The translations under genes were made by a program, and so were the position numbers. Positions 5,599 through 57,709 of a DNA stretch of 64,000 nucleotides are shown piece by piece. Below the pieces are notes generated by a model. It was not told the origin of the DNA. It searched no databases and saw only the letters and a program-made list of their open reading frames with translations. Position 1 is the first letter of the stretch; every line of letters begins with the position of its first letter. Source of the stretch: Elsinoe ampelina. Its lineage: Eukaryota. The DNA is taken from contig ML992507.1 of NCBI GenBank assembly GCA_010093995.1, positions 679,576 to 743,575 on the forward strand, given 5' to 3'.

Positions 5599-5957
5599 AC
5601 CAGGTGGCCAAACATTGTGTAGCGAACACAGAGAGAATAAAGAAGAATACACGTTCCAGAACGCTGACTTTGCTGTGCGAGCAGATCCCGAGTTCATGAT
5701 GACGAGTCCGTTCTACGATAACCAGCACGCGGAGCTGGGACGGAGAGGGCTGTTTAACGAATAGCCGCGCTCGTCTCGACATGAGTCAACGGTCATGCAT
5801 ATACAATGGATCACACGGTTCAGCGACATCATCGACACCAGTCCGCAGGTGTCAAATCCCCCTTTGGCAGGAAGTACTTTTTACTACCAGCGTAGTAGCT
5901 CACAGTATATACACTATATACAAACCTTACCACTATTCCCTGCCTTTGCCCTCCTAT

Positions 5958-6764: not shown

Positions 6765-7789
6765 GGTGTTGGTTCCATGAGCCGAGGTTGTCTATGATCT
6801 ATGATGATGCATTTGTTCGCAACATCTCTTTCGCTTCTGACAATGTGCTATTAGACTGACAAGGAATTTTCGTGTTCCCTGAATTGACACGTGTCGCCGA
6901 GGTCGTATGCCATTGAAATGGTAGGCGAGTATGGCGAAGTTGTCGTCCGTGGGGCATGATGTGAGATCCCCGTGGGGTCGATCTGCGGAGGGCATCGGCG
7001 GGGTTGACCGGGGAGACGGCACCAACCAAGAATTTGTACTTCTCATGCCCATGCATCACAGTACTCTGCTACCACGAGAACGAGACCCATCGTGCTGTCA
7101 TCCATAGACAGCACTCAGCTTCAACGGTCCGGCGGTGCATGCTCGCTCAGTCTATGGCTGTCTTTTGTCAGTCTCGGCAAGGCTGAGCCACCGGAACCGC
7201 ACGACATGATACCCATACATTCTGTGCAATCTCTCAGGTCAGCAGAAAGCCGATGGACGTTCATACTGAGAGTGTAAGATCTCAATGTCCGACCTATTCC
7301 AGTGCTTGCACAAATGAACCCCAACCATGCCATGGGTGCATGTTAAGGTAATGAACAGACACCGTCTGCAACGCGTGCTAGGTCAAGTCCGTACTGCATC
7401 ATGCATGCTGGTAGGACTCTTGACGATGGACAAACCGATGTTCTTGCAGGTCTGCTTGATTGGAAATATCCTCTCAAACAAACGGAGGAACATTCCTATC
7501 AATCTCTCCGGGCTCGAATGCTTTTAGATCGCCAATTCTACGAATGGGAGAGCTGCCATACGGGCTCGGGCGTTGCAGCGTTTGAGGGCTAAAACCGAGC
7601 ACGAAATCTCAATGGCAGGATGCCCAAGAGAAATCGTCGCCAGAATGGCCCGAGTATAGTTGTACTTATGCTCGTGCAGCATTACTGACAAAGCTTACTC
7701 TTGGATTATGTGCACGACAAATGATTCCGTGCGACATTATAGCATCAAGTCTTACCTCTCGGGTACAGCTTCGACATTGGCAATTCTGT

Positions 7790-30195: not shown

Positions 30196-32133
30196 ATGTC
30201 CGTCCCACTACCAGTACCGCCGCAGCCTGCACACGTGGCGGAACAAGCTGCAAAGGCCCAAGAGCATGCGATGCGTATCCAAGCGCGATACGCAGAAGAG
30301 AGAAACAGACGTGTCAAGGATGAAGGTCTCGGCCAGTACATCGACCTGATCAAGTCGGACAAGTTCAAGCATTATGCAGAGGATCCATGGGTCGACAGGA
30401 GTAAGCCTGGGAAGAGACCACCGACAGATAATTGCAAGGCTCTGATCCTCGGAGCTGGCTACGCAGCATTGCTCTTTGCTGTCGGACTTGTCGAAGTTGG
30501 CTTTGAACCCAAGGATATCCTGTTCGTTGACTCTGCAGGAGGCTTCGGTGGAACTTGGTACTGGAACCGCTACCCCGGCTTGATGTGCGATGTGGAGAGT
30601 TACATCTACATGCCTTTGCTGGAAGAGACTGGCTACATGCCAAAGCACAAGTACGCCTATGGCCCCGAGCTCCGCGAGCATGCCGAGCGTATTGCCGCCA
30701 AATGGAATCTTACCGACCAGCTCGTCCCCAGCGCGACCATCAAGGAGTCCACCTGGGATGATGCCACCAGCACATGGAACACGACCATCCATCTGGACCG
30801 CTTCTCGGAATCTACCACCATCACCTCCAACTTTGTCCTTCTCGCATCCGGCGTCCTCAACACCCCCAAGATTCCCTCCATCCCAGGCATCGACACCTTC
30901 GAAGGACACATCTTCCACACCGCCCGCTGGGACTACAACTACTGCGGCGGCACCCCCGAAGACCAAACGCTTTCCAACCTCCACGACAAGAAGATCGCCA
31001 TCATTGGCACCGGGGCCACCGCCGTACAAGTCGTCCCCGCCCTCGCCTCCAAATGCGCCCATCTGACCGTCTTCCAACGCACCCCCTCCGCCGTGGACGA
31101 GCGTAACCAACGCCCAACTGACCCCACCGAATGGCGCACCATCACCTCCCAACCCGGCTGGCAACGCGCCCGCATGGCAAACTACTCCTCCTACCTTTCC
31201 AACCTCCCCGACAAACCCGCCCAAAACCTCGTCGACGACGGCTGGACGCACTTCCCCTCCTACTCGGCCCTCGTCGGCGGCCCAGCCTGCGCCAACCTTA
31301 CCCCGGAAACCATCGGCCCCCACATCGCCAAGATGCACGCCCTCGACTTCCCCCGGCAAGAACGAGTCCGCGCCCGCGTCGACGCCACCGTCAAGGACCG
31401 CGCCACGGCCGAGGCCCTCAAGCCCTGGTACCCAGGGTGGTGCAAACGCCCGTGCTTCCACGACGAGTACCTGCCCGCCTTCAACCGGTCCAACGTCACC
31501 CTCGTGGACACAGCGGGGCGGGGCGTCGAGCGCCTCACGCCCCGCGGCATCGCGTTCGACGGCCGCGAACACCCCGTCGACCTGGTGATCATGTCGACGG
31601 GCTTCAACTCCCCCGCCGTGGGCAACCCGGCGTCCAAAGCCGGGGTGAAAATCACGGGCCGCGACGGGTTGACCATGGACGCCAAATGGGCCGCTGGGGT
31701 CGGGACCCTCCACGGTGTCGTCACCAGGGGTTTGCCGAATTGTTTCTTCCCTGGTCCGGCGCAGGCAGGGGCGTCGGCGAATCATGTCTGCACGCTGGAT
31801 GTGATTACGAGGCATGTGGCGCATATTATCTCCAAGGCGATGGAGAGGGCGGGGGAAGGAGGGAAGGTGGTGATTGAGCCGAGTGCGGAGGGGGAGGAGG
31901 GGTGGACGGGGAGGATCATGGGGCAAGCGATCAGTTATGCGGTGCTCATGGGGTGTACGCCTAGTTATTTGAATAGTGAGGGGGAGGCGGATAGGGAGAA
32001 GAGTATGGAGGAGAAGATGAAGGGAGCGAGGGCGGCGGGGTGGTCGAGGGGGTTGTTGGATTATGAGAAGGTGTTGGGGGAGTGGGAGGGAGAGGGGAAG
32101 TTGGAGGGGTTGGTGGTGGAGGTCAAAGCTTGA
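30196..32133 (+). CDS. Type I Baeyer-Villiger monooxygenase
   Basis: GAGYAA and GTGATA Rossmann motifs, GGTWYWNRYPG, BVMO fingerprint FEGHIFHTARWD, and WCKRPCFHD. Confidence 0.95.
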   Translation: MSVPLPVPPQPAHVAEQAAKAQEHAMRIQARYAEERNRRVKDEGLGQYIDLIKSDKFKHYAEDPWVDRSKPGKRPPTDNCKALILGAGYAALLFAVGLVEVGFEPKDILFVDSAGGFGGTWYWNRYPGLMCDVESYIYMPLLEETGYMPKHKYAYGPELREHAERIAAKWNLTDQLVPSATIKESTWDDATSTWNTTIHLDRFSESTTITSNFVLLASGVLNTPKIPSIPGIDTFEGHIFHTARWDYNYCGGTPEDQTLSNLHDKKIAIIGTGATAVQVVPALASKCAHLTVFQRTPSAVDERNQRPTDPTEWRTITSQPGWQRARMANYSSYLSNLPDKPAQNLVDDGWTHFPSYSALVGGPACANLTPETIGPHIAKMHALDFPRQERVRARVDATVKDRATAEALKPWYPGWCKRPCFHDEYLPAFNRSNVTLVDTAGRGVERLTPRGIAFDGREHPVDLVIMSTGFNSPAVGNPASKAGVKITGRDGLTMDAKWAAGVGTLHGVVTRGLPNCFFPGPAQAGASANHVCTLDVITRHVAHIISKAMERAGEGGKVVIEPSAEGEEGWTGRIMGQAISYAVLMGCTPSYLNSEGEADREKSMEEKMKGARAAGWSRGLLDYEKVLGEWEGEGKLEGLVVEVKA

Positions 32134-32640
32134 GGTAGGATTTGATTCTATCAGGCCAGTGGGTCATGTAAGCAGTGATAGACAGAGAATAGACAAGTCA
32201 TTAAAGGAAATCTCATTCGTAGGCTTTTATCTGGCGGCTTCTCAAGTGAAAAGGCCAAGTAGGAACTGCTCAAGTGAGCGATCCCATCGTCCCAACCCCC
32301 ACTGAGAGGGAAGGAAACGTCAATCTAACAGAAAATTGGGAATGGTGAGGTGGTTGGGTAGCAATCTGTTGTTTTGCTCAATCTTCTCTCTCGCTGTCTT
32401 CTTGTACAGCATGAGCAGTCTTTTTCTTCTCAAAGGCTCGTGCTGCAGTCGTGCGGCTAGAAGCCGCTTCCCCTTTGAACGCCATTTCGCCGTTATGCTT
32501 GATCCGTCAGAATCATGCTGAAGATGTAAAGAATCCGACCCATGCCATGCCGCAAAACTCCGATGGAAGCCAACATGGTTGTAATAAAGATCCAATGCCG
32601 TGTGATGATGATGCCATTGAAAGGTTGTGTGAAGGGATCA

Positions 32641-34310: not shown

Positions 34311-35272
34311 TATATTACTCGATTGAGTGGATGAAGATGATGTTCAGCGTCGTATCAGCTCTTGTCAAATTGATATGTTACTGATCTGGTCGTGAAAGTG
34401 TGCAGTTCGTCAGATATCTGAAGTGGTGTTAGCGTGTTATGGCACGTCAACATGGCGGCAGAAGCCAACCGATTCGCGTGTCGACTGACCATGAACAAGG
34501 ACAATGCTGTCGTAGTCGATTACTTGATGAGACCGGCTCGTGTTACACTGTTGAACAGATATGCTGAGAAGGAAGAAGAGGTTGTTCGACACGTCGGTTG
34601 CAGGACGCAATAATCTATGCCAAGGGAAGAATTGTAGAGCGACGCGAGAGGCTGCTGTCCGACAAGGTAGAGGATGATTGATTGTTCGGGTCACGAGTTG
34701 ACGTGAGTGACGAGAAGCTGCGTGTGTTGTTTGTTGTCGCTCTGAGCGAGAAGGTGTGAGAGGTGTGTATAGCACAGAAGAAGAGCGTAAGTGGAGTTGG
34801 TTCTTCTGACGCTCGGTCCTTGCTGCAACTCGCGGGCGCGTTTTGCGGCTCTGGGGCTGTTTCCCAAGAGTTGTGAAGTCACAGCTGGTTGCTCTGGTAG
34901 TGCCTTTTTAGTCTGCTTTTGAGCGCGTTGTTCTTCACTCCAGATAGACAACGGTTTGATCAGCCAAATTTCGATAGTAGTGGCAAATTGTGAACTGCGA
35001 TGAGTTGCAATCGAGAACCGAGATTGATGATGCAGATATCTTTCACCCAAATGTTTTGCAAGGCATTTCGTGGTCGAAAATGGACGAGACTAGCCGAAGC
35101 AGATCACTCTGTCCCGGCAACGGCCAGCAGAGCCGCATCCTGAACGCCAGATCACGTGTTCGATCGGAGCTGAAGCTTGGCTCAATTTTCTCCGACCTCA
35201 ATCTTGCATATTCGTTACAGAGCTCCACCGCATGCCCTCCCATCACGACCATTGAGCTGCCACCGACCAGGC

Positions 35273-36467
35273 ATGCTCCCTGTTCGTCTGCCTTTGGGCC
35301 ATGCCTTCAAACGGTTAAAGCCCAGCACCATCTTGCCTCTCCGTACCTACGCTCAAGCGACAACCACCACTACTACCTCTTCCTCCCTCAAGGCCGCATC
35401 CGATGGCCCGACCGCGCCCCAATCTGCGGCCTCGGTCCCGCAACGTAAAGAGGCTATCCAGATGAAGACCTACACCCCAAAGACCCCTGGTCTTCGCCAT
35501 CTCAAACGTCCCATCAACTCACATCTCTGGCGCGGCAAACCCCTTCGAGCCCTCACATTCGTCAAGACAGGCCACGGCAAAGGCGGTCGCAACAGCAGTG
35601 GGCGCATCACAGTACGACACCGCGGTGGGGGTCACCGCCGACGAATACGCACAGTCGACTTCTCGCGCATGGCGCCCGGCCCCCACAAAGTCGAGCGCAT
35701 AGAATACGACCCCAACCGCACAGCCCACCTGGCTCTGCTCAGCAAGGAAGGCACAGGCGACAAGAGCTACATCATCGCGGCAGAAGGCATGCGAGCAGGG
35801 GACGTAGTCGAGTCCTTCCGTCCCGGCATCCCAAAAAGCTTGATGGACACCATGGGCGGGACCATCGATCCGGGAATGCTGGCCGCCAAAACCGCGTTCC
35901 GAGGAAACTGTCTCCCCATCCACATGGTGCCGATCGGGACACAAGTCTTCAACGTCGGCAGCCAAGGTAAGAAAGGCGCCGTATTCTGCCGGTCGGCAGG
36001 GACATTCGCGTTGGTCGTCGCGAAGGAACAAGCAGGGAAAAAAGTCCGCAGCGTGACTGTCCGGTTACAAAGCGGAGAAGTACGAATCGTAGCGCCGGAC
36101 GCATGCGCCACGATCGGGGTGGCGAGTAATCCCTTCTACCACTTCGGACAACTAGGCAAGGCAGGGAGGAGCAGGTGGTTGAACATCAGACCAACAGTGA
36201 GAGGTCTGGCGATGAACGCATGTGAGTATTCTCCCCCTTACACACTGCCCTCTCCTGCACCATCCCTACGAATCCAACTGACATCCCCCAGCCGACCACC
36301 CCCACGGCGGAGGGCGAGGTAAATCAAAAGGCAACGTGCACCCCCGCTCCATCTGGGGCACACCCGCCAAATCAGGGTACAAGACGCGCAAGAAGCGCAA
36401 CCCGAACAAGTTCGTCGTCAAAGAACGCGTACGCAACCAGGGCAAGAGAAGGTCAAAGGGCAAATAG
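35273..36467 (+). CDS. RML2: Mitochondrial ribosomal protein uL2m; exons 35273-36221, 36292-36467
   Basis: [22 protein letters not shown] and [19 protein letters not shown] motifs; N-terminal presequence. Confidence 0.96.
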
Positions 36468-38547: not shown

Positions 38548-39836
38548 GGTGAATGAATAAGAAAGCGGCCTCCCCTGCCCTCCACCAATAATCCGAATGT
38601 AGCTTGAGAGTCACGCGTCTGGTATCGAGGATGGGTAAATGTCCCGGAAGCTCAGACTCTCAAAAGCAGCGGGCCGTGACAAGCGAGGCCCAGAAGACCA
38701 CAAAAATGTCAGGGTTCTTTCGGTTCAGAGGGAGGGTTTGCGACTACAAGCCCTAGCGTGTCATCGGGTGGTTGCAAGGCCGAGCTGTCAAAGAGCAATG
38801 ATTGTTCGCTCAATTAAGCGAAGTTGGGTGGACGGGTGGAGTTGAATGTTGTATATCAGAATCGATAGACGAGAACGGATAGATCACGTCTTTGAGGTAG
38901 ATTATTGTTGGTACGGTAGTATTTCAAATAGCGTCTTTCAACATTGCCTGCATTCTCCTCTTTGGCAAGCTGTTTTGGAGTGGAGATTACCTCTAGCCAA
39001 TCAGCGCGAGCGGGTTTGACATCCCCGCCCAAGCGCGTCTATCTTCTCCTTCATCTCCGCATCCGCTTCTAGACCCGCGCATGGGCTCGTGTACTTCACA
39101 TATAACTCCTACCAGCTCGGCCATGGTACGTTTCCTAGTAGGACTTTCGGTCGGCACGACTGTGGATGATTGACAGCGCGTCCTTTTGTGTACGGTACCA
39201 TTACTGCCTCTCCTTCTGGTAGTGTGGACAGAAAGGTGCTACAGCCACGCGCTCTCTCGACAGGCTGCGCGATCCCGTAGCACTGATTCTGGTAGTACAC
39301 TCTGTGAAGGAAGGCAGCGACTGACAGCATGGCGCTCTGTCTGCAGCTACCTATGCGTCCGGTAGTTTTGACAGGGATTTCCTCCCAGCTTGTCAACCTC
39401 AATATAGAACGCGGTGTCACGGCGTTGATTCTGGTTGGACTTTAGGTAGCGACTGGGGCAGCGACAGACAGCATGGATATCATTTGGTGATCACTATCAT
39501 TCACCTCCTGAGAAGTCGTACGAGGTAGCTGTGACTGGCGCCACGCTTGACACGCTTGGCCCCACAACCCGATTCTCTTCTTCAAAGCCTCCATCTTCGT
39601 CTTCAGCTCTTGGCTCTCCTGGCCATCTTGGGAGATGTCTCTAGACTGTGGTAGGTATGGGAAAAGAGTATGAAGGTGTCGTAAGTTGCGATAGTGCAGA
39701 AGCAAGGTCCGAATGTAGACCCTTATGCACCTTCCACCTTGGCACTATCACATGTTTGCAGCATTCACATGCACAATCTTTCACATTCTACAACAATCTA
39801 TACTCAGTCTACCTTCACTCCCATCTCACATCGCCT

Positions 39837-41090
39837 TTACACCAAATCCTTATGCTCCGGCACCGGACTCCTCAACTTCCCCGTCTCAATCGCAGACCTC
39901 ACATTACTCAGACACCACTCCTCCATCTTGATCTGCGTCTCCACACTCCAAGTGCCCATGTGCGGCAACAACAGCACATTGGGGTTGGCGATGAGTCCAG
40001 GATGAATCTTCGGCTCCTCCTCATACACATCTAGCCCAACAGAGTAGACGTGCCCCGAGTCCAAAGCCTTGACAAGCGCATCCTCATCCATAACCGCCCC
40101 TCTCGCAGTATTGATAATCGTCACGCCCTTCTTCATCTTCTTGAACTCCTCCGTGGAGATGATATGATGTGTGTTTTTCTGCGCCAGTCAGCAATCTCAC
40201 CCGCTTTCCTTCATCCTCATTCCCTTCTTTGCCCCATCATAGAAGGATTAAGCACTCACATTCAACGGCAAATTCAAACTCAAAACATCACTCCTCGCCA
40301 GCAGCTCATCAAAAGAGACATACTCGGCGCCTCCATCCAACCCCGCCTCCAACCTCTTCCGATTATGATAAATCGTCGTCATACCAAACAAATCCATCTT
40401 CGCCTTCAAGTTCCTGCCTATCCCTCCCATGCCCAGAATCCCCAAGACTTTCCCCTGAGGATCATGCCCCAGAGGCGGAGGCGGACTGCCGCGCCACTTC
40501 CCCTCTCGCGCCGCGATGAGGGACGTGTTGAAGTTGCGCAGCGCCCCGATGATGAGGAACACGGCTGTGTCGGCCGTGCTGTCGTCTACGGCGGTGGGGA
40601 CGTTGGAGACGAGGACGGGGGGGGAGCGCGCGGCGCAGGCGGAGACGTCGATTTGGTCGTAGCCTGCTCCTTTTCGGGGGTCAGTGTCATGTCCACAGAG
40701 CCATGTGTACTAGGACGGTGCGGTGGCGAGACTTGTGGATCATGATGGGAGGGGGGGAGGGGGTTGGCGAAGTGAGATTGACGTACCGTTGTGCGCGAGG
40801 AAGCGGAGTGACTTGGGGAGCACGTCGAGCAGCTCGGCGTCGATGAGGCCGGTGAAGGAGTAGCTGGCGAAGGTGCGGAAGGCGGCGACTGCGCCGTCAA
40901 AGGCACCGGATTTGCATTCTTCGATGAATTCGGAGCGGGTGGTGGCTTTGGGGGTGATGAGCTCGGCGATGGAGGCGAGGTCGGATTTGGCTTGGTGGGC
41001 CCTGTGGTGATCAGTGGTGGTTCATGATGATATCGGAAGATTGGTATACTGATCAATATTGCCTATGAGGAGGACCTTGGGTTTGGACAT
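39837..41090 (-). CDS. D-2-hydroxyacid dehydrogenase (glyoxylate reductase-like), multi-exon
   Basis: MSKPKVLLIG start, GILGMGGIG, INTARG, GLDVYEEEP and PHMGT motifs. Introns near 41049-41002, 40786-40664 and 40259-40179. Confidence 0.92.
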
Positions 41091-41576
41091 ATTTGTGTTG
41101 AGGGTCAAGAGGTGGAGTTCGTGGTGTGGGTGGATATCGGCTTTTGAGCACCAAAGACGGACGGTAGCAATGAAGGGGGGGCAATTGCAATATTTTTGCC
41201 CAAAGAATGGACGATATTTTGACAGAGACCTGACAAAGGTAGTACAGATGAAGAAAACTATCAAGCGCCTTCACAACATGTCCATCACTCCGCCAATGGT
41301 AGTGATGCTATATCGGGTATTGACGGGCGTAGACTTGGTTCGGGAAAACTCCGTCCGAAGGGCGTCTTCATCCTTCAGACCGACATCGCAGGAGGATGGC
41401 TTGAGGAACATTAAAAGTATTCAGGTGATAGACGTACAAGTCATCCATTACTATCAGAAATTATCCGTGCTCTGTTATGAAGCACCATTCGCAATAGCTT
41501 GCTGCTCCTTTCGCTCTATCGTACACTTTTACTCTCCCCACTGCAAATGCCGAATATCCCATGCGATGCTGTACAT

Positions 41577-47001: not shown

Positions 47002-49834
47002 ATGGCGGCGGCTGCGGTAATGCAAGATCACGCTACACACATCACCATCGAAGACGAGGAGGAGGACTACTTCAATGATCTGTCGCAAACCAGGAACGGC
47101 GCCGCGACTGCAGACGAAATACCAAAAGCAAAGCGGATAGCATGTGTCCTATGCAGGAAGCGCAAACTCAAATGCGATGGTACCAAACCGAGCTGTGGAA
47201 CATGTAAACGCCTATCGCATGACTGCTCCTACGATGAGGTGCGAAAGAAGTCGGGTCCGAAAAGAGGATACGTGAGGCAACTGGAGGCGCGTTTGGGTGA
47301 GTCTCCTATGCTATGCCATCGTTGGCAGGCCTAGACGAACTGCTCATTCGGCTTGGAGCATTTCCGTTGCTTGAAAGACAGGGGACACATGCTGACCATC
47401 CACAGCCCAAGTCGAGACAATGCTAAAAGGTGGTGATGTGCCAACAGCATCAGCATCGAAGAGCAGAAGTGCCAGCTCTCAAGCCTCTCCAGACCAAATG
47501 AGCGACATCAACCTGGCAGAGTCATTCCCTACATCACACGCATCGCGATCTTCCGGTACAAACCTAACACCGAATGCTCCACCACGAAACGAGCTGATGA
47601 CCCTGGACCTTGAGGAGCCACTACCCACACAAAACATCATCGATGACTTGTAAGAAGGCGTTTCATTAATAATAGATCACATCAATGCTGACACATCCAG
47701 AAATCGATTGTACTTTGAGAAGGTCCATCCAGTGGCGCCGTTAGTCCATCCGGGCAGATACTATGCAGCCATGAGTCTTGATCCTCATCAGCGCCCACCA
47801 ATTTGTTTGAGATATGCAATGTGGGCTGCTGCTGCATCTGTCGTCGACAAGTACGAAGAATTGCAAGAACACTTTTACAAGCGAGCCAGAAAGTACATCG
47901 AACGCGACGAGATGCGAGGTCACGGAGAGGCCATTGTCACCGTACAGCATGTCCAGACCTGGTACCTTCTTGGCATGCTCGAGTTCAAGATGACATACTT
48001 TCCTAGAGCATGGATGTCAACAGGACGTGCTTGCCGTCTTGCTGTCATGATGGGACTCCACAGACTTGACTTTGCTGGACTAGAAGTCAAGCAGTGCTTG
48101 CCGCCGCCTCGCGACTGGACAGATAAGGAAGAGCGACGACGAACATTCTGGATGTGCTTCACCGCCGACCGCTTTGCCTCCATTGGTACTGGCTGGCCCA
48201 TGACGATCGATGAGAACGATATCCGCACACATCTACCCGCCGACGATGAAGCATTCGAGCAGTCTCGGGAGGTTCCAACCATCTCGTTACAACGCGCACT
48301 GGAGGCCGATGGATCTACCAAGCTCTCCTCGGCAGCTGGCGTCATGGTCATGGCGTGCTTGTTCGGTCGCAATCTGGTGCACTTGCACCGCGGTACTCCT
48401 GACGACAATGAGAGGAACCTCAATGGCAAGTTCTGGACTCGTCATCGAGCACTTGACGACCTTCTACTCAACATCGCCCTTACCCTTCCCGACCACCTTC
48501 GGCTACCTAGCGGTATCAATGACCAAAATACGATCTTCCTCAATCTCTGCATCCACACCTCGGTCATCTGCCTACACCAAGCTGCCATTTTCAAGGCCGA
48601 TGCAAACAAGCTGCCCGGAACCATTGCGTCAGAGTCGAAGATCCGGTGCATCACAGCCGCCGCAGAGATTGCTTCCATCATGCGCATGATCTCGCACCTT
48701 GACCTGACCAACGCCAACCCTTTCTCGACTTTTTGTCTCTACGTCGCCGCGCGTGTGTTTGTTCAATACCTCAAGTCAAGACCCTCAGACAGCAATGTCA
48801 AGGCATCATTACATTTCCTGCTCACCGCCATGCAGGCTATGAGGCGAAAGAACCTCCTCACGGAGTCTCTTCTGGTTCAATTGGACATCGACCTCCAGGC
48901 TGCTGGTCTGGAAGAGTCGAGATCATTGAGGAATCGTCTGGCCAAGATGGGAGGAGTAGCACCGATGCAGGCATCAAAAATGTGCACCAACGGCGGCACA
49001 CAAGAGATGCCTGGTCCCACTGGTCCGATGCCTCAAGCTCCACGACAAGGTCGTTCCTTTGGTGACAATACCATTGCCTACCTGCATCAAGCTGCCGCAC
49101 AACCACCCGCGAGTCGTGTGCAGAGTGTGTCAGACTCGGGCCAGAGTCCTGTCAACGGTAATGGCACAGACTTCTCCAGAGTGAGATTCATGCCCACACG
49201 TACGAAGACGCCATCCACGAGGCCGAGTCCAGCAACAGTCTCTGACGAGAACATGGAATTCATGGGCGACGCTTTCGACAGTGCCAGCCCTGGATCATTC
49301 AACGGCTTCTCTTCTCACACTTCATCTGTTTCACAACAGACACCTCCCCTTCTCAATCACCGCGACACATCCAGCTCAACATGGTCAAATGACAAACCTC
49401 TTTTCACACCCACAACAACCACAACCACCAATCCCCTCGCAGCCAACATTAGTGCAATGAGCAACGACGACTTCCAAGCCATGATGAATCAGTACACGGA
49501 CTCTATCTACACGGATAACAACAACTGCAGCAACAATCATAGTAACAGTAACAATCTCTCAGATCCCATGAATGTCATCATGGGCGGCACCAACGATGAC
49601 ACTGCCTTTACCATGCCCAACTTTTCTCTTCTCGATGACGGCTCAAATCAAGCTTCTGGTCTGGACTCGACGGGTTTCACTCCGGGACCTTCGAACGGCG
49701 GCGACTTGCTTGCTATGAGTGATGAGGAATGGAAGCAGATCATCGACTCTGGCATGGTCGACATGGGCTGGAACGGCGGCTTCTTGTCGGACAGAGGTGT
49801 ACAAGGAGACCAGAGGTGGAAGCCAGGCGTATAA
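47002..49834 (+). CDS. Zn2Cys6 transcription factor with fungal-specific TF domain; exons 47002-47296, 47406-47649, 47701-49834
   Basis: ACVLCRKRKLKCDGTKPSCGTCKRLSHDC and EERRRTFW...DR. Both introns are canonical and restore frame. Confidence 0.93.
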
Positions 49835-51100
49835 GGGTCACGAGGGGTTTTTGCGGCAAAACACACGGTTTCATTTGCTAATCGTATGGCGATATCGGGA
49901 TTGGGCGATATCGGGATTGATGTCAACGACGTGTATAAGCATTGTCGGTAGTGGATCGACAGCGAAGGAGTTCAGGGGCGGAATGGCTGGGTAGTCTTGC
50001 TACCTTGGAAAATGGCACGTTTTTGGGAGGAATCGCTGGGCGTATTGTGGCTTTTTAGATACCTCACCTCTTCATGTATACAACGATTGATCACTTTCTA
50101 GCCAAGTACGCCCTCCCACCGAACGCACGATACCTCGGGCCATCGACCATGTGAATCCAGCCGTGGACGGAGCGGCCCATGCAAATCTTTCGTCATCAGC
50201 AATGAGCACGTCGCCGATTTCCCGCTCGGTGACAGCAATGATGCCGCCGCGACCGGAACGAACATGCATAACCATGCGAAAAGGGCAAATGCGGGGGGGC
50301 CGATTTCGCCAAAACGCGGGGCTTTGTATCGCTTCTTGTACTTCCTCCTCGGCCAGAATGCTCGTTTCGCCGAAACCCCATTGATGATAAAAGGAGGTCA
50401 AAGTAGGCAAGGTAAATAGGTGGCATCGTTCTCAATCCAAATCAATACGCGCTCAAGACAGAAAGCCTCTCTTCAGACTCTCTCCATATCCTCATATCGG
50501 GTTCTGTGCAGCACAAACAAATACTACAACCATGGCCATAACACAAGCCACATATCCCTCCACCACTTCCTTTGCATCCACAACGAGCGACGACTCGATA
50601 CAAAAGCCATACACCTTCCGAGATACCACATCCAGCACCAGGGCTTCGAGACTGAGCTTGAGATCATTCATGGCATCCCTTTCATCACGAGAGCACACAG
50701 CTTCGTCAACTTCCAGTCGTGGCGTGGGCAAAGTCGACCACAACCGTCCACCAAAGAGGGAACTTCAAACAGGCTGCTACTTCGAGGATGCATAGAGAGT
50801 CAAAAACAGTACTGGCAGGGCCAGGGAGACATGACTGCAACGATTTTGGGTATCAGAACAAAGCATTAGTAGTGGGACTTATGCTGTTATGTGATTGCGA
50901 TAGGCGAATGTAATTACTTGAACAAATAATGGTTCCTTTCATCTTGATAGTCTGCTCTGGTAGATCCATCGGCTCTGGAGAGCAACTTTGCCGAGGATGT
51001 GTTTCGGCGTTTTGCTCGTCCCTGCCGCTCGAATTCATCGAGGAATTCCCCCTCAACCTTTTCTGAATGACAAACGACAGAACCGTGCAATGATAGAATC

Positions 51101-53416
51101 ATGCCGACGGCGAGGAGGACACAAGCGTGAGTATCCCGGGTTGTCACATTGTGAGGCACTGTGATGCTGTGCGAGTTTACACTGACCCTTTGTCCAGGTG
51201 TTTACCATGTCATTCGAGGAAAGTGAAATGCCCGGGTGGGACACCATGTATCAATTGTCAAAGACACAAGAAGGAGGCCGAGTGTCGGTATCCTGACAAA
51301 GGTCGAAGGAAAGTCACGGTCCGTGAAAGGTCTGTTGTGGTCTGCCGGTCTTCGGCGTCGTGGCCGAGAAGGGGTTCGCAGAGGGTAAGAAGGCAAGCGG
51401 CTGATCAACCACAGCTACATCAATGACCTGGAAGATGAAATCAAGCGCTTGAAACGGCAATCGCAAACACAAACGCCATCGGCTTCGAATTACAGTCCTC
51501 AGCAGCCTGATTTTGCAGTAGCACTACCAGCAACTACTACCACCGCTTCTACCATACTACCAACCGCGGCACAAGACACAGAGCACGTCTTCGATCACGA
51601 TCCATGGTTTGTCGATTACAAGAACCATGATGGTCCGGTGTATATTGGCGAAGCAGCATGTACCGGCTTCACCACTCGCTGTCGCCAGGTCTTTTCATCA
51701 GTCACCGGGCTAGATGGCAAGCACATCGTCAGGACGCATTTTATATCGGACGAGAAATTTGCAGAATTCTCGGTAACGCCATGTCCATGGCCAACGTACA
51801 ACCAAGCTACGCTAATGGCGAGAGTGGTTCAGGGTACTATTGGGTCTTACTACAATCTGTGTCGGTGGGATGTCCTCTTTAGCGATATGAAGAATCTTTA
51901 TTCATCACCCATGGTACCCGGTAGGCTATTGACGTGTAAGCTTTATGCCATCTTCGCTTTGGGAGAGGTGTATTCCGCTAGGTCGAGCAGCAGCGGTGGA
52001 TACCCTGGCTTGCAGTACTTCTTGAGAGCGAATCGAGAAGTGTCTGGCAGGCCAGAGAGGCCGAGGACAGAGAGTATCGAGATTGCCGTCATGCTGGTAA
52101 GACCAACTCATGATTCCAGATACACGGCTTACATGGGACAGTGCTTGTATTCCCTCATACTCAACCGGCGAGACGCTGCATACTTCTGGATAGGCTCCGC
52201 TCTCCGCATGTCCATGACCCAAGGTATGCACCACTCGATTCCACAACACCAGACCGTCGATGTTGCCAAAATGGAGCACCGCACTCGCATGTGGTGGACG
52301 GTCTATGTCCTGGACCGGATGAGCTCTGCCATGATGTCACATCCCATCTCGATTCCTGACACAGACATCGACATTCAACTCCCATCGGATCCGCGGACCA
52401 TACCAGCTCTCGCCAACAACACCGACCTGATCGATCACGAATTTCTCATAGCAACCATCAAACTTGCACGTATCCTCGGCGATATCGCATCCTCTCTATA
52501 CACCCGCGCAAAAGCCCAACGGTCCTCCCTCCATCGGGTCCAGACACTTCTCAAATCCCTCCAAACCTGGCACGACAACCTCCCAAAACACCTCCAGCTT
52601 CCCAAGTCCACACCGATCCAGACCGTCCCCCGCCCCGTAGCAACCATGCATCTCTGGTTCAACCAGACCATCATCCTCACCACCCGGCCCGTCCTCCTCT
52701 ACGTCCTCCGCAACCACCTCTCACCTACCCAATCTTCACCGGCTCAGTTTGGCCCCTACCACCAACCATCAATACCTACCAACACTTCCGACCCCTCCCT
52801 TGCCTTTTCCACAACCTGCATCACCTGCGCCAAAGAGAACATCCGCATCCTGCAATCCCTCTGGGTCGTCGGATCCTTCAGCACCTTTGCCTACTTCTAC
52901 AGCAACTACCTCTTCTCGGCAGGGGTGACCCTCGGCGTCGCCTCTCAACTCCCCTCTCCTACCAACGACCAAGACGCTTGCACAGAGGGCTTCGAGTTTG
53001 TCCTGCAGACCTTGAAGCATCTGACCGACTGCGGGAACTTGCCCGCGAAAGAATTCCACAAAAACCTCGATGCGCTCAAGGCGCAGATCGCGAAGTGGGA
53101 GGAGATGAAGAGCCATAGACAATCTAGCTCGACCGTCCCCATGAACGTGGACAACGTTGGCCCTGGGGAATTCCCAGGGATGGGGGCCAGTGCGATTGAG
53201 ACAGCGAACCAGGTGTGGAGTGGGAACTCTGCATTTCATGATGCAGGTGTCTTCTCGGAGCCGACGCTGCAGGGCTTCCTGGCGCAGGGCAGCTTCGATT
53301 TACCTGATATCATGGCGGGGGCCGAGGGGGAGGGCGATCCGGATTTGGCATTTTTGTATACTTGGCCGGATGAGTTGGGGGATGTGGGTGGGGGTTTAGG
53401 GATGTCGGGGTTGTAG
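51101..53416 (+). CDS. Zn2Cys6 transcription factor (Put3-like middle region); introns 51127-51197, 51330-51414 and probably 52097-52141
   Basis: ACLPCHSRKVKCPGGTPCINCQRHKKEAEC, PVYIGEAAC and EHRTRMWWTVYVLDR. Confidence 0.9.
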
Positions 53417-54131
53417 GGGCAAGAGGTACGGGATGGATGAGCAGGATGAGAATTGAAAGAGGATATCAGGTAAAGAGAGAAGAGTGTGTGTTGTTGTAGA
53501 GGCTGACTGCGGACGGGTCGGCGGCAGTTTATGGAACTACCAGGATTCGAAAGTGGAATGCGGCTTGCTACATGCGCAGCTCTGTTGAAGGGCCTTCTAC
53601 CAGTTCCCCGCCGTGAGTTGGTCACGTGATCAACCGGCCATTGGCTTGGCAGGAACGGATTCCGCTCCTCCCGTTCAATTCCTCGCGTTTCACTCCAACC
53701 CAGTCGCGTCTTCCGCATCACTTCACTGCAAGCTCCACCTTCTCTTCTTCTACTGCTTACTTTTTATCCCAATTAGCATCACAACTCGTGCCGCCACTGT
53801 TGTTATCATGTGTGTATCGGACAGCTTGAGATGGAGTTCCAATCTCCACCACTTCCTGGTCAGTGGACGGTTTGTCGGACAAACCGTGCTCAGCTGGAAA
53901 ATTGCTTAATTCCAGTTGGCCGTTGGAACCACTTCCCATACTGGAGTGCTGCTTCTCAGGGTCTACAACCGATGAACTGTATCAAACGTATGAACTGGAG
54001 CGTTCGTACATCTCCACTATCAACGGCGCCGTTCTTGACGAGACAAAATATCCTTCATGCATCATGGAGGGATATATAAGGCCTGGTCTGCGCATTTGCG
54101 TATGGCTTGACGTTTGTAATAGCTTCGCAAC

Positions 54132-57100
54132 ATGATGTCCAGAACTATCGCACTTCTACTGTACACATGGCTCTTTACTTGTGCCATGGCAGCGGTCCCA
54201 ACACCTGCGGCACCTGCTGTGCATGCTGCTCCAACTCCCTTCTGCTCGAAGCAATTCGCGAAGGCGTTCTCCAAATTCCCCAAGCAGGCCACCAAACTTT
54301 GCAAGACATTCACCAAGAAGAAGATCCATACTGCTTATCCTGATTTCATATGGACCAACTGCAATGTGGATCAGTATCGCCCAAAGAAGGTCAATGTCGC
54401 TCTTTCACAAGTGTGTACCAAGTTCATGAGCCAGCATAGCTCAAAGCCTGCCGGCAGAACTACTACGACCCCGATCAAAACAACACCGAAAAGCAGTGTG
54501 GATCCGACAACGGGACCAGCAGTAAAGACTCCCTCGAGTGTATTCTTGAGCTCACCTTCGAGTTCGTTGCAGAGACCCTCGTCGACCAGCAATGTCCTGC
54601 CCTCTTCAAGCACGTCTGCGACAGCTTCTTCCGTCGAGATGTCGACATCCATTTCTGGCGGAAGCAGCTTTACCACTAGCTCGGTCAGCACCTTTACACG
54701 GATTTCTAGCACGGATATATCGTCTACCACGGTATCTACATTGGAAGCCGCGCCCACCGCGACTTTGATCCCGGTGATGGATGTAACCAATGATCCGAAG
54801 GATTTGAGTAATCTACGGCTACAGAACAGCAGTGCCCTTTTCTATGCCGAGCAGTCTTTGGAGACGAGTATATTTCCCTTGTGCACGTTTCGTGATGATT
54901 TCTGACCATGACAGATCCATATGCGAAGCAGATGATGGCCAAAAGTATGTATCTACTAATCCATACTCACTACGACGACTAATGGAATCCCAGTGAGGGT
55001 CAATTTCAAGTATCCCACCGTCTTGATCGAGAATACCGATTATCTGACAGACGTGGCTTGCAAGACGACTAGCGTCCAACAAGATTCTTTATCATGGACG
55101 TTAGAGCTAGTCATAACAACGAAAACCGCTTACGACTTCATCAAGTCGAACTGGGCCAGACATTTGAACATAGCTGGTAGAGGTGAGGATATGGTCATCA
55201 TTTTCAGGGGCGACGACTGTGAGCAAACGGCCAACCATACACGAAGCTACTGGTTGGGAAGTGTAGGTTACCTGGGCTGGCAGGAAGAGAATGGCTATGG
55301 CTACCTGCGATTCGAAGGAGATGAGATCCTTACACAAGAAGGTATCGAGGATGCTCGATTGGTCTGGGGTTTGTCTTTCCGATGCACAATATGTCAATCA
55401 CTATTCACGCAACCATAGGATCGTCATCCGCACTGAATGACACCTCAATCAGTGGTCTCAATTCGACAGTGTCCTACCAGAATAACCAGACTTGCAAGCC
55501 ATTTCCACCTGACGGCAGCGAGAGCGAAGGCCTCGACGGAATGCAGACGGATCCCTGCGTATCTTCTTTTGATGCAGCTCTCGATGACAAGATAGGCTAC
55601 GACTACTTGGATTCGAATTCCCGCATTCTTGAATCGATTTCCGCTGTCGACGCATACAGAAGGTATCTCGACGCCTTCAATCAACGCAAGAAGGAAATGG
55701 AAGCAACTCCTGAGCCCACTTATACTTTCTGGGACCTGTTATGGGGTGCTATCACCTCTGCGGTGACAACGATTGTCAACATAGTAGTCACAGCTGTGGA
55801 GATAGTTGCTACGATCATCACTGGATACGAGGGGGAATTTTTGCGTGGAAAATTTGACTTGAACCTGGCACCTCCGAATGAAGACGAGTCTCCGTGGGGC
55901 CCGGCCTACCTTCTACTCAAGTACCCGCAAGACGGTTCAGGGCCGCCGGCACGGGCGAGGGCATCTGCAGTTGCGACCGCTGCACCTGGTAGTTCCGACG
56001 ACGATGACGGAGGCTTTTCGGGATCCATAGCAGCTTACTGCGTCGACTGTGGAGCCCGCGGCACAATCGAGTATTGGGGGTCAGCGGATCTCAGTATCAC
56101 AGGAGGTCTACGAAAATTGCAGGTCGGGATGCAAGGCAACCTCGCAGCAGGTCTGAATCTCGGCATACAGGTTGAAGGGAAGTACACAACACCGAAATTG
56201 CGTCGATCTATCATTCCGCCTGTCGGGGTTCCATTCATCAAGATACCTGGTATCATCACGGTCGGACCACAGATGTCGCTCGAAGCAACATTACAAGCAT
56301 CTGTTTCGGCTTCGGGAGAGATCCTTGCGGGAGTGTCCTTGGATGTCCCATATTTCAACGTCATGTACGATTTGGTCGATAAGGAAAACTCAAGGTCCGT
56401 CGGTCTCGATGATATGAACATCAAGAAATACTTCCAGATCAAGGGGAAATTATCGGCAGAAGCGACCCTTGGACTCCCGATCAGCCTGGGAATCGGCGTC
56501 GAGATTCCATTGCTGGAGGCGAACTTTGCTGCCAAGTTGATCAATACCCCTGCGATCACCGCCGAAGCGTCCTACCAGCACGACATCGCATCAGGGGGAA
56601 ATGTTCCTAAACCGGACGATGACGAAGATAAATGCAGCGGCATCGAATGGGGGATCAAGTTCAGCAACACACTTGCGTTCAACCTCCTAGACATCTACGA
56701 AAAGGAACTTCTCGCCTGGAAGCCCCCGCCCTTCGTCAAAGGCTGCATCAACTTCACCTCAGACACAGCGACCATCGGTAACGCATCGTCGGACAAATAC
56801 TCCAACTCCATCTCCACCCCGACCTTCGACTTCGCGACCAACGCCACAACAGGCGCCTCCCTAGTCGACACATCCAACTCCCTCTTCCTAGTCTCAGCAC
56901 TAGACCACAACCTCTACGTCCAAAAGTCCCCCGAAGGCGCCACCTTTTTCCAAAACTCAACAACCACAAGCAACACATGGCTCGTCGACCAGCGAAAGAA
57001 AAAGTACAAAGACGAACCCGTCCTCCTCACCGACGAGCGCAACCAAGCCATGTTCCTCTTCCCCTCGCTCCTCCAACGCTTCGGCGTCTCCCGCGTCCGC

Positions 57101-57427
57101 ATGGCAGGCGTCGACCGCATCCCCGCGGGATCCCGCATGACGGCCCTCGCGGCCGGGGATCTGGACAACAAGAGCGACACCCCGTCGGCGTACTTTTTCT
57201 CGGCGCCGGCCGGTATCCAATTCGAAGATGGACCGAGGGTGTTGCTGCCGGCTGTGTGCGAGGTCGAGGACGCGATGGGGCACAGGTTGCCCAAGGTGTT
57301 TGTCGTCATGCACCCTGTTGATGGCCTGAAGACGTTGATGGAGAATGAGTACATGCCGCGCGTGGTCACGGGGGGTACGGCGAGGAATTGTTCTATTTTG
57401 GCGTTGAAGTTGGCGCGTCAGCTGTGA
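54132..57427 (+). CDS. Large secreted multidomain protein of unknown function, about 1049 aa; exons 54132-54867, 54915-54944, 54994-55368, 55419-57427
   Basis: Signal peptide, Cys/Lys-rich head, Ser/Thr stalk, FKYPTVLIE, YCVDCG and IPGIITVGP motifs. Three GT-AG introns join three ORFs in frame. Confidence 0.8.
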
Positions 57428-57709
57428 GAAGTTGCAGAGCAGTCGTGTGCCGACGCGTGGTGGCAAGTGCTCGACAGCGGCCGGCACTCGGCGACGGCCG
57501 CTGGAGGAGGTCGGCAGGCTGTCTGGTAGGCAAGAGTCACATCGACTGTCTGCGCTGGGCTTGAATCACAGGAGCTTCGAACGGATCCATCAGGTCTCTC
57601 TCTTCTTGAGACTGGTTCTCTTTCATTTCCAGAAATGAAGCTACGGGGTATCATTGCTAATCGTTGCTCAGAAAGCTTGAAAAACATCTCTGTATCTGTC
57701 GTATCATGA

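Follow-up and report, generated by a model that had tools for sequence, protein, structure and literature searches.

Why one strand of DNA should turn, within a single gene, from C-rich and G-poor to G-rich and C-poor, and whether such flips are landmarks of chromosome function or belong to the genes that carry them, is the question raised by a 64,000-nucleotide stretch of Elsinoe ampelina (contig ML992507.1 of assembly GCA_010093995.1, positions 679,576 to 743,575), called the window below. An earlier note on this DNA had read the flips as a localized strand-asymmetric mutation or repair signature and had named stable replication origins or recombination hotspots as candidates for its source. 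Here, the composition of these flips (called dipoles, each consisting of two arms and a core), their position relative to genes, and the explanations that may account for them are examined.

Dipoles in the window

The type example lies in a gene for a Baeyer-Villiger-type flavin monooxygenase (BVMO, P0001; Table 1). The closest named matches of its protein are found in Elsinoe fawcettii (83% identity) and Sphaceloma murrayae (71%), and the full length is conserved in an alignment of 12 sequences. The described run from a C-rich stretch through a GC-rich core to a G-rich stretch was confirmed in place by skew and base counts. The C-rich arm sets in 500 bp past the ATG, the flank before it being only faintly G-rich (skew +0.13 at 30300-30600). 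Between 30750 and 31350 the arm holds 265 C versus 111 G (binomial p=1e-15), with C at 27-30 of 40 third codon positions per bin. Over 31300-31800 the skew lies between -0.27 and +0.05 at a G+C of 0.685-0.71; in the core, C and G stand side by side at third positions, and T is absent from them in two bins (0/40). The skew then stays at +0.59 to +0.73 over 31800-32200 and is down to +0.08 by 32200-32400. With 191 G versus 44 C at 31780-32200 (p=5e-23) and third positions occupied by G in 25-35 and by C in 0-4 of 40 per bin, this 3' arm crosses the stop codon (32131-32133), runs about 100 nt into the 3' flank (skew of the first 100 nt past the stop, +0.30), and ends abruptly. The switch is mostly synonymous, third positions going from 29/40 C to 35/40 G, and its switch score S is 0.78.

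Table 1. Dipoles, their parts, and other skew features of the window (positions counted from the first nucleotide of the window; BVMO skews from 200-bp windows)
Feature	Position	Strand	Details
BVMO coding sequence	30196..32133	+	intact, intron-less; 645 aa, stop-free translation
BVMO upstream arm	30700..31400	+	coding strand C-rich/G-poor; skew -0.40 to -0.45
BVMO core	31400..31750	+	arms overlapping, without net skew; G+C 0.685-0.71 (~70%)
BVMO 3' arm	31750..32250	+	coding strand G-rich/C-poor; skew +0.59 to +0.73, up to +0.8
Sec13-like WD40 gene	2200..3400	-	dipole over whole gene; stop ~2294, switch ~2750, S=0.73
4HBT thioesterase-like gene	5860..6850	-	dipole over whole gene; ORF 5961-6791, switch ~6310, S=1.15
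2-Hydroxyacid dehydrogenase gene	39700..41250	-	dipole; Pfam 2-Hacid_dh_C; switch ~40510, S=0.77
Zn2Cys6 / Fungal_trans gene	49200..50050	+	weak 3'-end dipole; ORF 47654-49831, switch ~49670, S=0.50; Pfam
Second Fungal_trans gene	52300..53600	+	dipole in final 1.1 kb; ORF 51389-53413, switch ~53070, S=0.83; Pfam
DUF7223 gene	56650..57450	+	dipole in final 0.8 kb; ORF 55325-57424, switch ~57150, S=0.57; Pfam
Subtilase (S8) gene, cut by window end	62900..64000	-	ordinary-strength gradient; Pfam Peptidase_S8; S <=0.29
Divergent promoter, cyclin gene (-) / mitochondrial ribosomal L2 gene (+)	34500..35550		S=-0.57, left +0.29, right -0.28; genes from Pfam

The same polarity had been reported to recur at six further sites. 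This holds for five of them (S of 0.57-1.15), whereas the sixth, at 63300 in the S8 gene, is weak, its coding-strand skew going from -0.15 upstream to +0.14 at the 3' end; a further, weaker dipole was found at 49670. The strongest dipole of the window is that of the 4HBT thioesterase-like gene, whose frame was assigned from phase-specific G+C and whose 4HBT match has E=1.1e-4 (22.8 bits, cutoff 20.6). In the gene that we take, from its sequence, to be Sec13-like (its Pfam matches are WD40 families), third positions on the gene strand change from C at 24/30 to G at 18/30. The 2-hydroxyacid dehydrogenase gene is split into exons, with ORFs at 39840-40187 and 40251-40709 and more upstream.

The bias of the switches toward upward polarity (C to G) is real. 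When switches were called with 500-bp arms throughout the window, five upward and no downward ones reached 0.7 or more, and seven upward and eight downward ones reached 0.5 or more. Read from their coordinates, seven of the eight downward switches are outer edges of dipoles, one of them being the 3'-3' junction of the Prp31 and Sec13 genes. The remaining one, at the divergent promoter at 35040, is the sole true G-then-C inversion of the window other than the junctions of dipole arms; the coding strands of the cyclin and the mitochondrial ribosomal L2 gene are both C-rich at their 5' ends.

Site classes and anchoring at gene 3' ends

At 4-fold sites, the C fraction is.66 in the upstream arms and the G fraction.61 in the 3' arms (elsewhere in the same genes,.34 and.24, respectively), the arm limits having been set from the skew profile, so that the size of these excesses is partly given by construction, which does not apply to the following split of C/T versus A/G sites. 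At C/T sites, the C fraction falls from.85 in the upstream arm to.27 in the 3' arm (T.73), and at A/G sites the G fraction rises from.36 to.93. Among the four bases at 4-fold sites of the 3' arm, G ranks far highest, T and C are about equal, and A is lowest; the two arms are reverse-complement symmetric. In the seven cores pooled, 4-fold sites are.45 C,.39 G,.06 A, and.09 T, giving a G+C of.84 versus.58 elsewhere. In four to five of the seven sites, G+C peaks at the switch, with an overall value of 0.66-0.75 in the core.

Noncoding DNA takes part as well. In six of the seven genes, the first 100 nt past the stop codon have a skew of +0.24 to +0.71, the upper value belonging to the second Fungal_trans gene, and a piece of 63 bp between two ORFs of the 2-hydroxyacid dehydrogenase gene (40188-40250), which must hold an intron, has a coding-strand skew of +0.59. 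The earlier note had allowed that the skew might disappear once amino-acid composition is controlled. It does not, as it is strongest at synonymous sites and present in the 3' flank and the intron-bearing piece: the strand bias acts at the DNA level and is not an effect of protein composition. The composition of the BVMO protein is itself pushed in the direction expected from the DNA bias. The skew implied by its amino acids goes from -0.07 (upstream arm) to +0.34 (3' arm), compared to -0.01 to +0.12 and +0.07 to +0.23, respectively, for the same arms in seven proteins at 52-55% identity. Window-specific amino-acid replacements in BVMO (30 events, after columns in which fewer than three of four close relatives agreed or a relative shared the window residue had been dropped) are compatible with this polarity but too few to give a direction.

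Two candidate processes were rejected. Methylation or a RIP-type C>T change was discarded on a CpG observed/expected ratio of 0.80-1.10 in arms and core, so CpG is not depleted. Conversion by cDNA with priming at the poly(A) tail, an idea taken from the 3' anchoring and limited length of the dipoles, was given up upon finding the same skew in the intron-bearing piece within a 3' arm.

Each of the seven strong switches is located 160-670 bp ahead of a stop codon. They had been described as occupying different relative positions in their genes, and switches that track only relative gene position had been named in advance as evidence against a chromosomal landmark; all seven are found in this last part of the coding region. 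When the coding-strand skew was binned by 100 bp from the stop, four of the seven genes had their peak in the final bin of the coding sequence and three in one of the two bins that follow it, hence between -100 and +200 in every case; the mean profile reaches its maximum (0.62) in that final coding bin. By 200-300 bp past the stop, the skew is at most +0.12 in six of the seven genes. The 3' arm thus has the shape of a ramp followed by a cliff: its skew rises outward and then drops within 100-200 bp. Dipole arms measure 300-940 bp and stop at gene boundaries, and the dipole as a whole extends over 0.8-1.6 kb counted from the 3' end, not scaling with the gene. The C-rich arm of the four long genes, which are BVMO, both transcription-factor genes, and the DUF7223 gene, has its start within the coding sequence; the three short genes and the promoter at 35040 agree with a C bias at the promoter or 5' side. 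In the window, about seven genes are, over the final 0.8-1.6 kb of their transcription unit, near saturation at synonymous sites.

Many neighboring genes had been thought to lack the pattern. A gradient was calculated on the coding strand of 20 genes in the window (11 on the forward and nine on the reverse strand), taking the skew over the final 300 bp together with 100 bp of flank and subtracting that of the stretch from -1000 to -400. All of 19 genes have a positive value (sign test p=3.8e-6), as does the S8 gene (+0.29), though mostly weaker than in the dipoles; outside of the seven, the same sign is seen in 12 of 12 genes and the S8 protease gene. Four of the seven strong genes have a convergent neighbor 118-675 bp away, and three have tandem neighbors. 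For four convergent pairs with a common 3' spacer, the amplitudes are 0.66/-0.09 (BVMO and cyclin), 0.21/-0.01 (DUF7223 and a histidine kinase gene), 0.15/0.64, and 0.25/0.44. Because convergent partners sharing a 3' spacer differ, the amplitude is gene-specific rather than spacer-specific.

Contigs from related organisms, with identities of about 95% and 91%, differ from the window by near-balanced exchanges (in one set, X12, C was gained 27 and lost 24 times, over contigs that reach 31840 with 40 of 314 differences listed, all up to 31506, hence mainly over the upstream part and not the 3' arm), and base composition would therefore be stationary. Among the 27 differences listed for 30700-31400, the other letter is C 12 times, versus six losses of C. 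The comparison shows a composition that is unchanged in the related contigs over the mainly upstream part covered or listed. A further set of contigs, X3, presumed to be RNA as a guess and given without starts, ends, or strand, covers 30138-32048 and 32235-32500; nothing is inferred from the gap at 32049-32234.

Comparison with known systems and rival explanations

In a study of 64 species, McLean and Tirosh (BMC Genomics 2011, PMC3315797) described fungal genes as C-biased at their 5' ends and G-biased at their 3' ends, a transcription-linked pattern whose cause was left open. According to the passages of that paper drawn on here, the G bias is maximal at the stop codon, extends into 3'UTRs, is present at 4-fold sites, and shifts amino-acid use; it is strong in many but not all genes, its correlation with expression is very weak (R ~0.07-0.10), and the authors argue against a major role of C>T changes, the AT skew being flat. 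Elsinoe is absent from the species list given there. The dipoles of the window match this published 5'-C/3'-G gene skew, at its extreme end: the coding strand is more G-rich toward its 3' end than upstream, for genes in either orientation (20/20 genes), and the G peak about the stop, the extension into the 3'UTR, the effect at 4-fold sites, and the amino-acid shift all recur. Two of the 64 species are, as we assume, Dothideomycetes. One difference lies in the amplitude, as single genes here reach skews of 0.6-0.9 with synonymous sites near saturation, whereas the values seen in PMC3315797 are species averages in 2-kb windows and modest. Moreover, the dipoles have a fixed scale that does not grow with the gene as well as a GC-rich core, and both C/T and A/G sites shift, with G and T rising in the 3' arm, unlike what those passages report. 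Finally, the strongest C bias is placed there at the promoter and 5'UTR, whereas the C arms of long genes start here in the coding region. In the literature searched, which included passages of the 2011 paper, no single-gene dipoles of such strength came up, and none for Elsinoe.

Positive coding-strand GC skew at gene 3' ends is also known from human genes, where Ginno et al. (Genome Res 2013, PMC3787257) report terminal skew together with R-loops in closely arranged genes. In the parts of that paper used here the R-loops are mapped, whereas the present likeness is one of composition alone. The arms of the window also differ in lying mostly in coding sequence. We know of no C-rich arm preceding the terminal skew of human genes.

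Recombination offers another way of arriving at GC-rich cores. Each core may be a long-lived meiotic hotspot at which GC-biased conversion raises G+C and a repair specific to mismatch type favors G or T on the outward strand, with G.T and G.G being repaired well, A.C less well, and C.C poorly, so that outward G or T donors are favored. This argument on mismatch types derives from yeast genetics. The G+C peak at most switches and the high 4-fold G+C of the cores are in line with it, as are, in part, the polarity of the 3' arm and its base ranking (G is predicted highest and C lowest), and C-G transversions make up 16-21% of the differences to related contigs (16/77, 24/147, and 44/229). Intragenic hotspots in fungal plant pathogens are named in the title of PMC5844332. 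Strand-asymmetric mutation about human meiotic break hotspots was described by Hinch et al. (Science 2023, PMC7615360), and it resembles the dipoles in its scale of about a kilobase, its mirror-image sides, and a one-strand loss of C and A that includes C>G and A>G. The polarity, however, is opposite: in the passages of PMC7615360 consulted, the left flank reads as losing C and A from the forward strand, whereas the left arm is C-rich here. In addition, the human footprint is centered on breaks and consists of an excess in mutation rate, unlike the saturated composition tied to gene ends in the window.

Position speaks against hotspots as well. Instead of decaying from the center, the skew reaches its maximum at the far edge of the 3' arm, with a cliff past the stop; each of the seven centers goes with the 3' end of a gene, and the sign is the same in all 20 genes. 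A central G+C peak as expected of a meiotic hotspot is present, but an effect that is maximal at the center and decays from it, and the polarity of mapped hotspots, are not found. The GC-rich core itself follows from the overlap of the arms without any conversion bias; calculated from the base ratios of the arms, this overlap predicts a G+C of about.79 at two-fold sites, compared to.78 and.62 seen. Candida albicans is a species without regular meiosis. Its genes nonetheless have the pattern strongly (PMC3315797). Mismatch-type biased conversion at a central hotspot had been our first working idea and was dropped on the stop-anchored ramp and cliff and the common sign in all genes; hotspots as the cause are regarded as improbable.

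An equally low probability is given to the possibility that the pattern is selected rather than mutational, be it through avoidance of C in the 3' part of the transcript under CTP shortage, through R-loop-assisted termination in packed genes, or through local codon preference. The confinement of the pattern to the transcribed unit, ending near its 3' end, would suit such selection, and the CTP-shortage hypothesis was published as an adaptive explanation by McLean and Tirosh (PMC3315797, in the passages drawn on here). The convergent neighbors of four of the seven strong genes would fit a need for termination, but the other three have tandem neighbors, and a convergent partner may, like the cyclin gene, have no strong arm. 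Furthermore, one preferred set of codons cannot flip from C-ending to G-ending inside one gene, and the composition of conserved proteins is shifted the same way, which looks like a cost and not a benefit.

The active sites might instead be the spacers, where breaks or nicks in nucleosome-free intergenic DNA would be resected and the surviving 3' tails would lose C and A. DNA to the left of a spacer would then become G-rich and DNA to its right C-rich, which yields a 5'-C/3'-G pattern on either strand by geometry alone. A gene pattern with reverse-complement symmetry does amount to a downward switch at each spacer, a symmetric one of this kind is found at the divergent promoter at 35040, and the ramp and cliff of the 3' arm fit damage that peaks beside a break. 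Human hotspots also show C>N and A>N changes on the forward strand, which is single-stranded to the left of the break (PMC7615360, the side being obtained by combining passages of that paper). Yet the two flanks of one spacer differ widely, as seen for BVMO and cyclin and for DUF7223 and the histidine kinase gene, and in long genes the C arm starts within the coding region, with only the faint G-rich flank before it noted above for BVMO. We consider this explanation about as improbable as the two before it.

Bacterial oriC and mammalian skew domains are marked by an upward jump in GC skew, the outward strand being enriched in G and T; this skew extends as far as the replication terminus, does not depend on gene ends, and is small in eukaryotes. 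Cores as fixed replication origins, with arms formed by leading- and lagging-strand asymmetry, can hardly be entertained: the upward jump with outward G and T resembles this signature, but the arms extend for 0.3-0.9 kb, up to gene boundaries, instead of persisting outward to the next terminus, seven origins would be needed in about 53 kb of gene-bearing DNA, all within the last kilobase of genes, and the amplitude of 0.6-0.9 is far above eukaryotic origin values.

Of the cause proposed in the earlier note, the localized, strand-asymmetric signature at the DNA level thus stands, whereas origins and recombination hotspots are not supported by the sequence composition, given the short arms, the anchoring at stop codons, and the wrong polarity and center.

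Proposed cause and its meaning

The anchoring at 3' ends, the presence at synonymous and noncoding sites, and the reverse-complement symmetry of the arms are observed. Taken together with the comparisons above, the flips probably represent the extreme end of the known gene-anchored GC-skew gradient of fungi, a substitution bias tied to transcription, and not landmarks of chromosome function. The link to transcription is one that we infer from composition and gene anchoring, and the cause would be substitution that is biased between the strands and coupled to transcription. The coding (non-template) strand of the 3' arm would gain G and T and lose C and A, that is, undergo A>G, C>T, and C>G changes, possibly because it is repeatedly single-stranded or unrepaired near termination, for example through terminal R-loops or a lack of transcription-coupled repair. 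The same changes would take place on the template strand in the upstream arm. Where the two regimes overlap, their dominant components A>G and T>C would sum to a GC-rich core without skew. The upstream switch of strands is the least understood step; antisense transcription or a different phase of Pol II could cause it. Important to note here is that an exposure of the template strand in the upstream arm lacks any explanation from these data, which counts against a transcription-coupled reading.

A more specific version, which is rather unlikely, is a self-reinforcing mutational state at the transcript 3' ends of a subset of genes in this fungal lineage. A G-rich coding strand would favor terminal R-loops, the displaced strand would lose C and A and gain G and T, and the next R-loop would become likelier; an antisense counterpart would act likewise on the other strand just upstream. 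If true, a conserved dipole of 0.8-1.6 kb, with almost all of its synonymous sites and some residues of conserved enzymes, would be set by this process and not by selection. This would explain why the fungal 5'-C/3'-G rule holds strongly for some genes and only faintly for those next to them, and would provide a concrete mechanism for the puzzle of 2011.

The dipoles of the window give no map of origins or crossovers, as the earlier note had hoped. They do create long stop-free frames on the wrong strand, which may mislead gene callers, and they break the stationarity assumed in codon-usage and substitution-rate analyses. A signal that is faint in most species can be read here in single genes, the sharp ends of the arms and the pushed composition of conserved proteins (Sec13-like and BVMO) making the bias legible. 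This genome would be a good system for the study of transcription-coupled damage, R-loops, repair asymmetry, or biased conversion.

Skew inversions across the window

At the type site, which lies in a flavin monooxygenase gene, the GC skew of the plus strand (200-bp windows) was -0.40 to -0.45 over 30700-31300, after which G+C stood at 0.685-0.71 with falling skew over 31300-31800. The skew then reached +0.59 to +0.73 over 31800-32200 and was already down to +0.08 at 32200-32400. Base counts gave 265 C versus 111 G in 30750-31350 (binomial p=1e-15) and 191 G versus 44 C in 31780-32200 (p=5e-23). The passage from C-rich through a GC-rich core to G-rich DNA, described at 30800..32160 in an earlier note made from the sequence alone, agrees with both the profile and the counts, and the inversion is real and striking. 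Read on the coding strand, we call this arrangement a dipole, with a C-rich upstream arm, an unskewed core, and a G-rich 3' arm.

A scan of the window with 500-bp arms, from which DNA below 42% G+C was excluded, found seven upward (C to G) switches of at least 0.5 (listed in the table below) and eight downward ones; at a threshold of 0.7, five upward and no downward switches were left. By reading of their coordinates, seven of the eight downward switches are outer edges of the same dipoles, including the 3'-3' junction of the Prp31 and Sec13-like genes, and the remaining one (35040) is a divergent promoter. The recurrence that the earlier note had claimed was thus recovered at 2750, 6310, 40510, 53070, and 57150, but 63300 is weak (score at most 0.29). 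The divergent promoter (34500-35550), between a cyclin gene (-) and a gene for mitochondrial ribosomal protein L2 (+), carries a G-then-C inversion (+0.29/-0.28); each of the two genes starts C-rich on its own coding strand, in line with the bias usual at fungal start sites.

Genes that carry the dipoles and the open frames on their antisense strands
Feature	Switch	Coordinates	Strand	Basis
WD40 gene, read as Sec13-like	2750	2294-3175, continuing further upstream	-	Pfam
4HBT thioesterase-like gene	6310	5961-6791	-	Pfam, E=1.1e-4
Flavin monooxygenase (type example), 645 aa, intact intron-less ORF	31640	30196-32133	+	translation
2-Hydroxyacid dehydrogenase	40510		-	Pfam
Fungal_trans transcription factor	49670		+	Pfam
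Fungal_trans transcription factor	53070		+	Pfam
DUF7223 gene	57150		+	Pfam
Antisense frame of the monooxygenase gene, 651 stop-free codons		30211-32163	-	
Antisense frame of the thioesterase-like gene, 364 stop-free codons		5703-6794	+	

Among named matches, the monooxygenase is closest to proteins of Elsinoe fawcettii (83% identical) and Sphaceloma murrayae (71% identical), and the window accordingly derives from an Elsinoe-like Dothideomycete. An alignment of 12 sequences shows invariant columns along the entire length of the protein, both arms included. The two antisense frames, for which no Pfam match was found at E up to 0.1, are by-products of the base composition of the dipoles, and gene callers could mistake them for genes.

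Over the window as a whole, absolute skew and G+C show a weak positive correlation (Spearman 0.23, p=0.002, n=179; 300-bp windows at or above 0.42 G+C), and skews above 0.3 occur in 22-67% of windows above 0.55 G+C versus 4-6% below. Two AT-rich blocks at 11900-16400 and 20000-25200 (G+C 0.13-0.33 in 400-bp windows) alternate with gene-bearing stretches, whose G+C is about 0.5-0.6, and resemble the RIP-degraded repeat isochores of Dothideomycetes; positions 24746-25050 are 305 consecutive N.

Anchoring at the stop codon

The interpretation of the dipoles is decided by their anchoring at the stop codon. When the seven genes were oriented on their own coding strands and aligned at the stop in 100-bp bins, the skew rose toward the stop, with its peak in the last coding bin in four genes and in the first or second bin past the stop in the other three; the mean profile has its maximum (0.62) in the last coding bin. 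At 200-300 bp beyond the stop the skew was at most +0.12 in six of the seven. The C-rich arm spans a further 470-940 bp upstream of the switch. Dipoles cover the entire gene in the three short genes (about 0.85-1.3 kb) and are restricted to the last 0.8-1.6 kb in the four long ones; in the monooxygenase gene, for example, skew is absent from the initial 500 bp (+0.04). The pattern does occur in genes on both strands, as the earlier note said, but C-then-G reads identically on either strand and this is therefore uninformative; orientation is given by the link to the stop codon.

The gradient, defined as the skew of the final 300 coding bp together with 100 bp of flank minus that of the stretch from -1000 to -400, was computed for the seven genes and twelve others. 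These comprise every gene in the window that has a clear stop and either a Pfam match or a long ORF, shorter unsupported ORFs being left out. It was positive in 19/19 genes (sign test p=3.8e-6), at 0.26-1.17 in the seven and 0.04-0.35 in the twelve; a subtilase gene cut by the window end and initially set aside gave +0.29. The Prp31 gene (644-2176, plus strand), which converges on the Sec13-like gene with 118 bp between them, carries a dipole of intermediate strength (G+C 0.60-0.64 and coding-strand skew +0.08 to +0.34 in its last 700 bp); this suggests a continuum of genes and not two classes.

Strand breaks in the intergenic spacers would produce the observed polarity and ramp. The amplitudes, however, differ greatly between the two sides of one spacer: in the four convergent pairs with a common 3' spacer, the 3'-end skews were 0.25 and 0.44 (Prp31/Sec13-like), 0.15 and 0.64 (an unnamed gene/thioesterase), 0.66 and -0.09 (monooxygenase/cyclin), and 0.21 and -0.01 (DUF7223/histidine kinase). 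Amplitude is a property of the gene and not of the shared spacer, and spacer breaks would not fit it. A meiotic-type break hotspot at the core appears contradicted by the shape, since the skew is maximal at the outer edge and then drops off a cliff, and by the anchoring of the sites to gene 3' ends. The polarity is wrong as well: passages of a study of human hotspot flanks (PMC7615360) report forward-strand C>N and A>N changes, a figure legend there places the single-stranded forward strand left of the break, and the combination would give a G-rich left flank where ours is C-rich. Replication origins at the cores do not seem credible, as their skew should persist outward while these arms are 0.3-0.9 kb long and stop at gene boundaries, and about 53 kb would have to hold seven origins, every one inside a gene tail. 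The map of origins or crossovers proposed in the earlier note thus falls on that note's own terms, because the switches track gene position, lying 160-670 bp before the stop in all seven genes.

Silent-site composition and a possible mechanism

In each 40-codon bin of the monooxygenase gene's upstream arm, 27-30 codons end in C; third positions are a mixture of C and G in the core (T in 0/40 in two bins), and G in 25-35/40 with C in 0-4/40 in the 3' arm. Pooled over the seven genes, the upstream arm is enriched in C and A and the 3' arm in G and T, and the arms are thus reverse-complementary in composition.

Synonymous-site composition of the seven genes, pooled; because the skew profile served to draw the arm limits, the C/G excess owes part of its size to construction, but the opposite shifts of C/T and A/G sites are independent of how the limits were drawn
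Region	4-fold A/C/G/T	C share at C/T sites	G share at A/G sites
Outside arms	.21/.34/.24/.20	.62	.59
Upstream arm	.15/.66/.10/.09	.85	.36
3' arm	.10/.14/.61/.15	.27	.93

The bias is a DNA-level effect. The first 100 nt past the stop have a skew of +0.24 to +0.71 in six of the seven genes (Sec13-like, -0.07), and the dehydrogenase gene has +0.59 in the 63 bp between two of its ORFs, a piece that must contain an intron; CpG is not depleted (observed/expected 0.80-1.10). Protein composition is shifted in the same direction: for the upstream and 3' arms, respectively, the skew implied by the amino acids is -0.07 and +0.34 in the window's monooxygenase, -0.03 and +0.28 in that of E. fawcettii, and -0.01 to +0.12 and +0.07 to +0.23 in seven proteins at 52-55% identity.

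Contigs from three runs of other organisms (X12, X14, X15) were compared with 29900-32500. One related contig covers all of it with 235 differences (about 91% identity), and an X12 contig has 66 differences over 30516-31840, where its cover ends (about 95%). Relative to the window, C is gained 27 times and lost 24 times in X12, and G is gained 19 times and lost 20 times. Among the 40 of 314 differences listed, none of them past 31506, 27 fall in 30700-31400, with the relative reading C in 12 and a window C replaced in 6. These exchanges are near-balanced and composition is therefore unchanged in the relatives over the upstream arm and core. Of all differences, 16-21% are C-G transversions (16/77, 24/147, and 44/229 in X12, X14, and X15), a share that seems high; these transversions outnumber A-C, G-T, and A-T exchanges in X12 and X15, and by a smaller margin in X14. 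Within the conserved FAD-binding part of the monooxygenase gene, a stretch of 34 bases (30545-30578) also matches a second, otherwise unlike contig in X14 and a further run, X3 (records 6 and 16), which would most simply be a paralogous monooxygenase gene with the same motif.

Taken together, the sequence indicates a mirror-symmetric bias that is tied to the transcription unit, as read from the genes, and acts on silent and non-coding sites. By arithmetic on the pooled synonymous sites, the 3' arm has G/A odds raised about 9-fold and T/C odds raised about 4-fold over baseline, which decomposes into two terms, a strong one for strand (about 6-fold for G and T) and a weak one for G+C (about 1.5-fold). 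Averaging the two arm regimes predicts about.79 G+C at two-fold sites where they overlap; the values in the cores are.78 (C/T sites),.62 (A/G sites), and.84 (4-fold sites), and the GC-rich core therefore needs no separate cause. The non-template strand would gain G and T and lose C and A in the 3' arm, as single-strand exposure or missing transcription-coupled repair would yield. In human genes, terminal GC skew accompanies 3' R-loops (PMC3787257). In the upstream arm the template strand would be the one affected; as a guess, the reason may be transcription from the antisense strand or another phase of the polymerase.

Relation to the known fungal gene skew

Pyrenophora tritici-repentis and Stagonospora nodorum are Dothideomycetes. 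Both are among the 64 fungal species surveyed by McLean and Tirosh (BMC Genomics 2011, PMC3315797). In their analysis, the fungal coding strand has a C bias at 5' ends and a G bias at 3' ends, the latter with its maximum at the stop codon and extending into the 3'UTR; the skew is visible at 4-fold sites and alters amino-acid use. As possible causes they weigh mutational regimes that differ between phases of RNA polymerase II and selection to avoid C, without deciding for either, and our literature search found no later mechanistic work on this skew. The window shows the same kind of bias, to which it adds strength in single genes, a fixed length from the 3' end, and a GC-rich core. The dipoles are thus an extreme member of a known, mechanistically unsolved kind. 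A further addition is that C/T sites are clearly shifted toward T in the 3' arm, which bears on the paper's argument against a large contribution of C>T.
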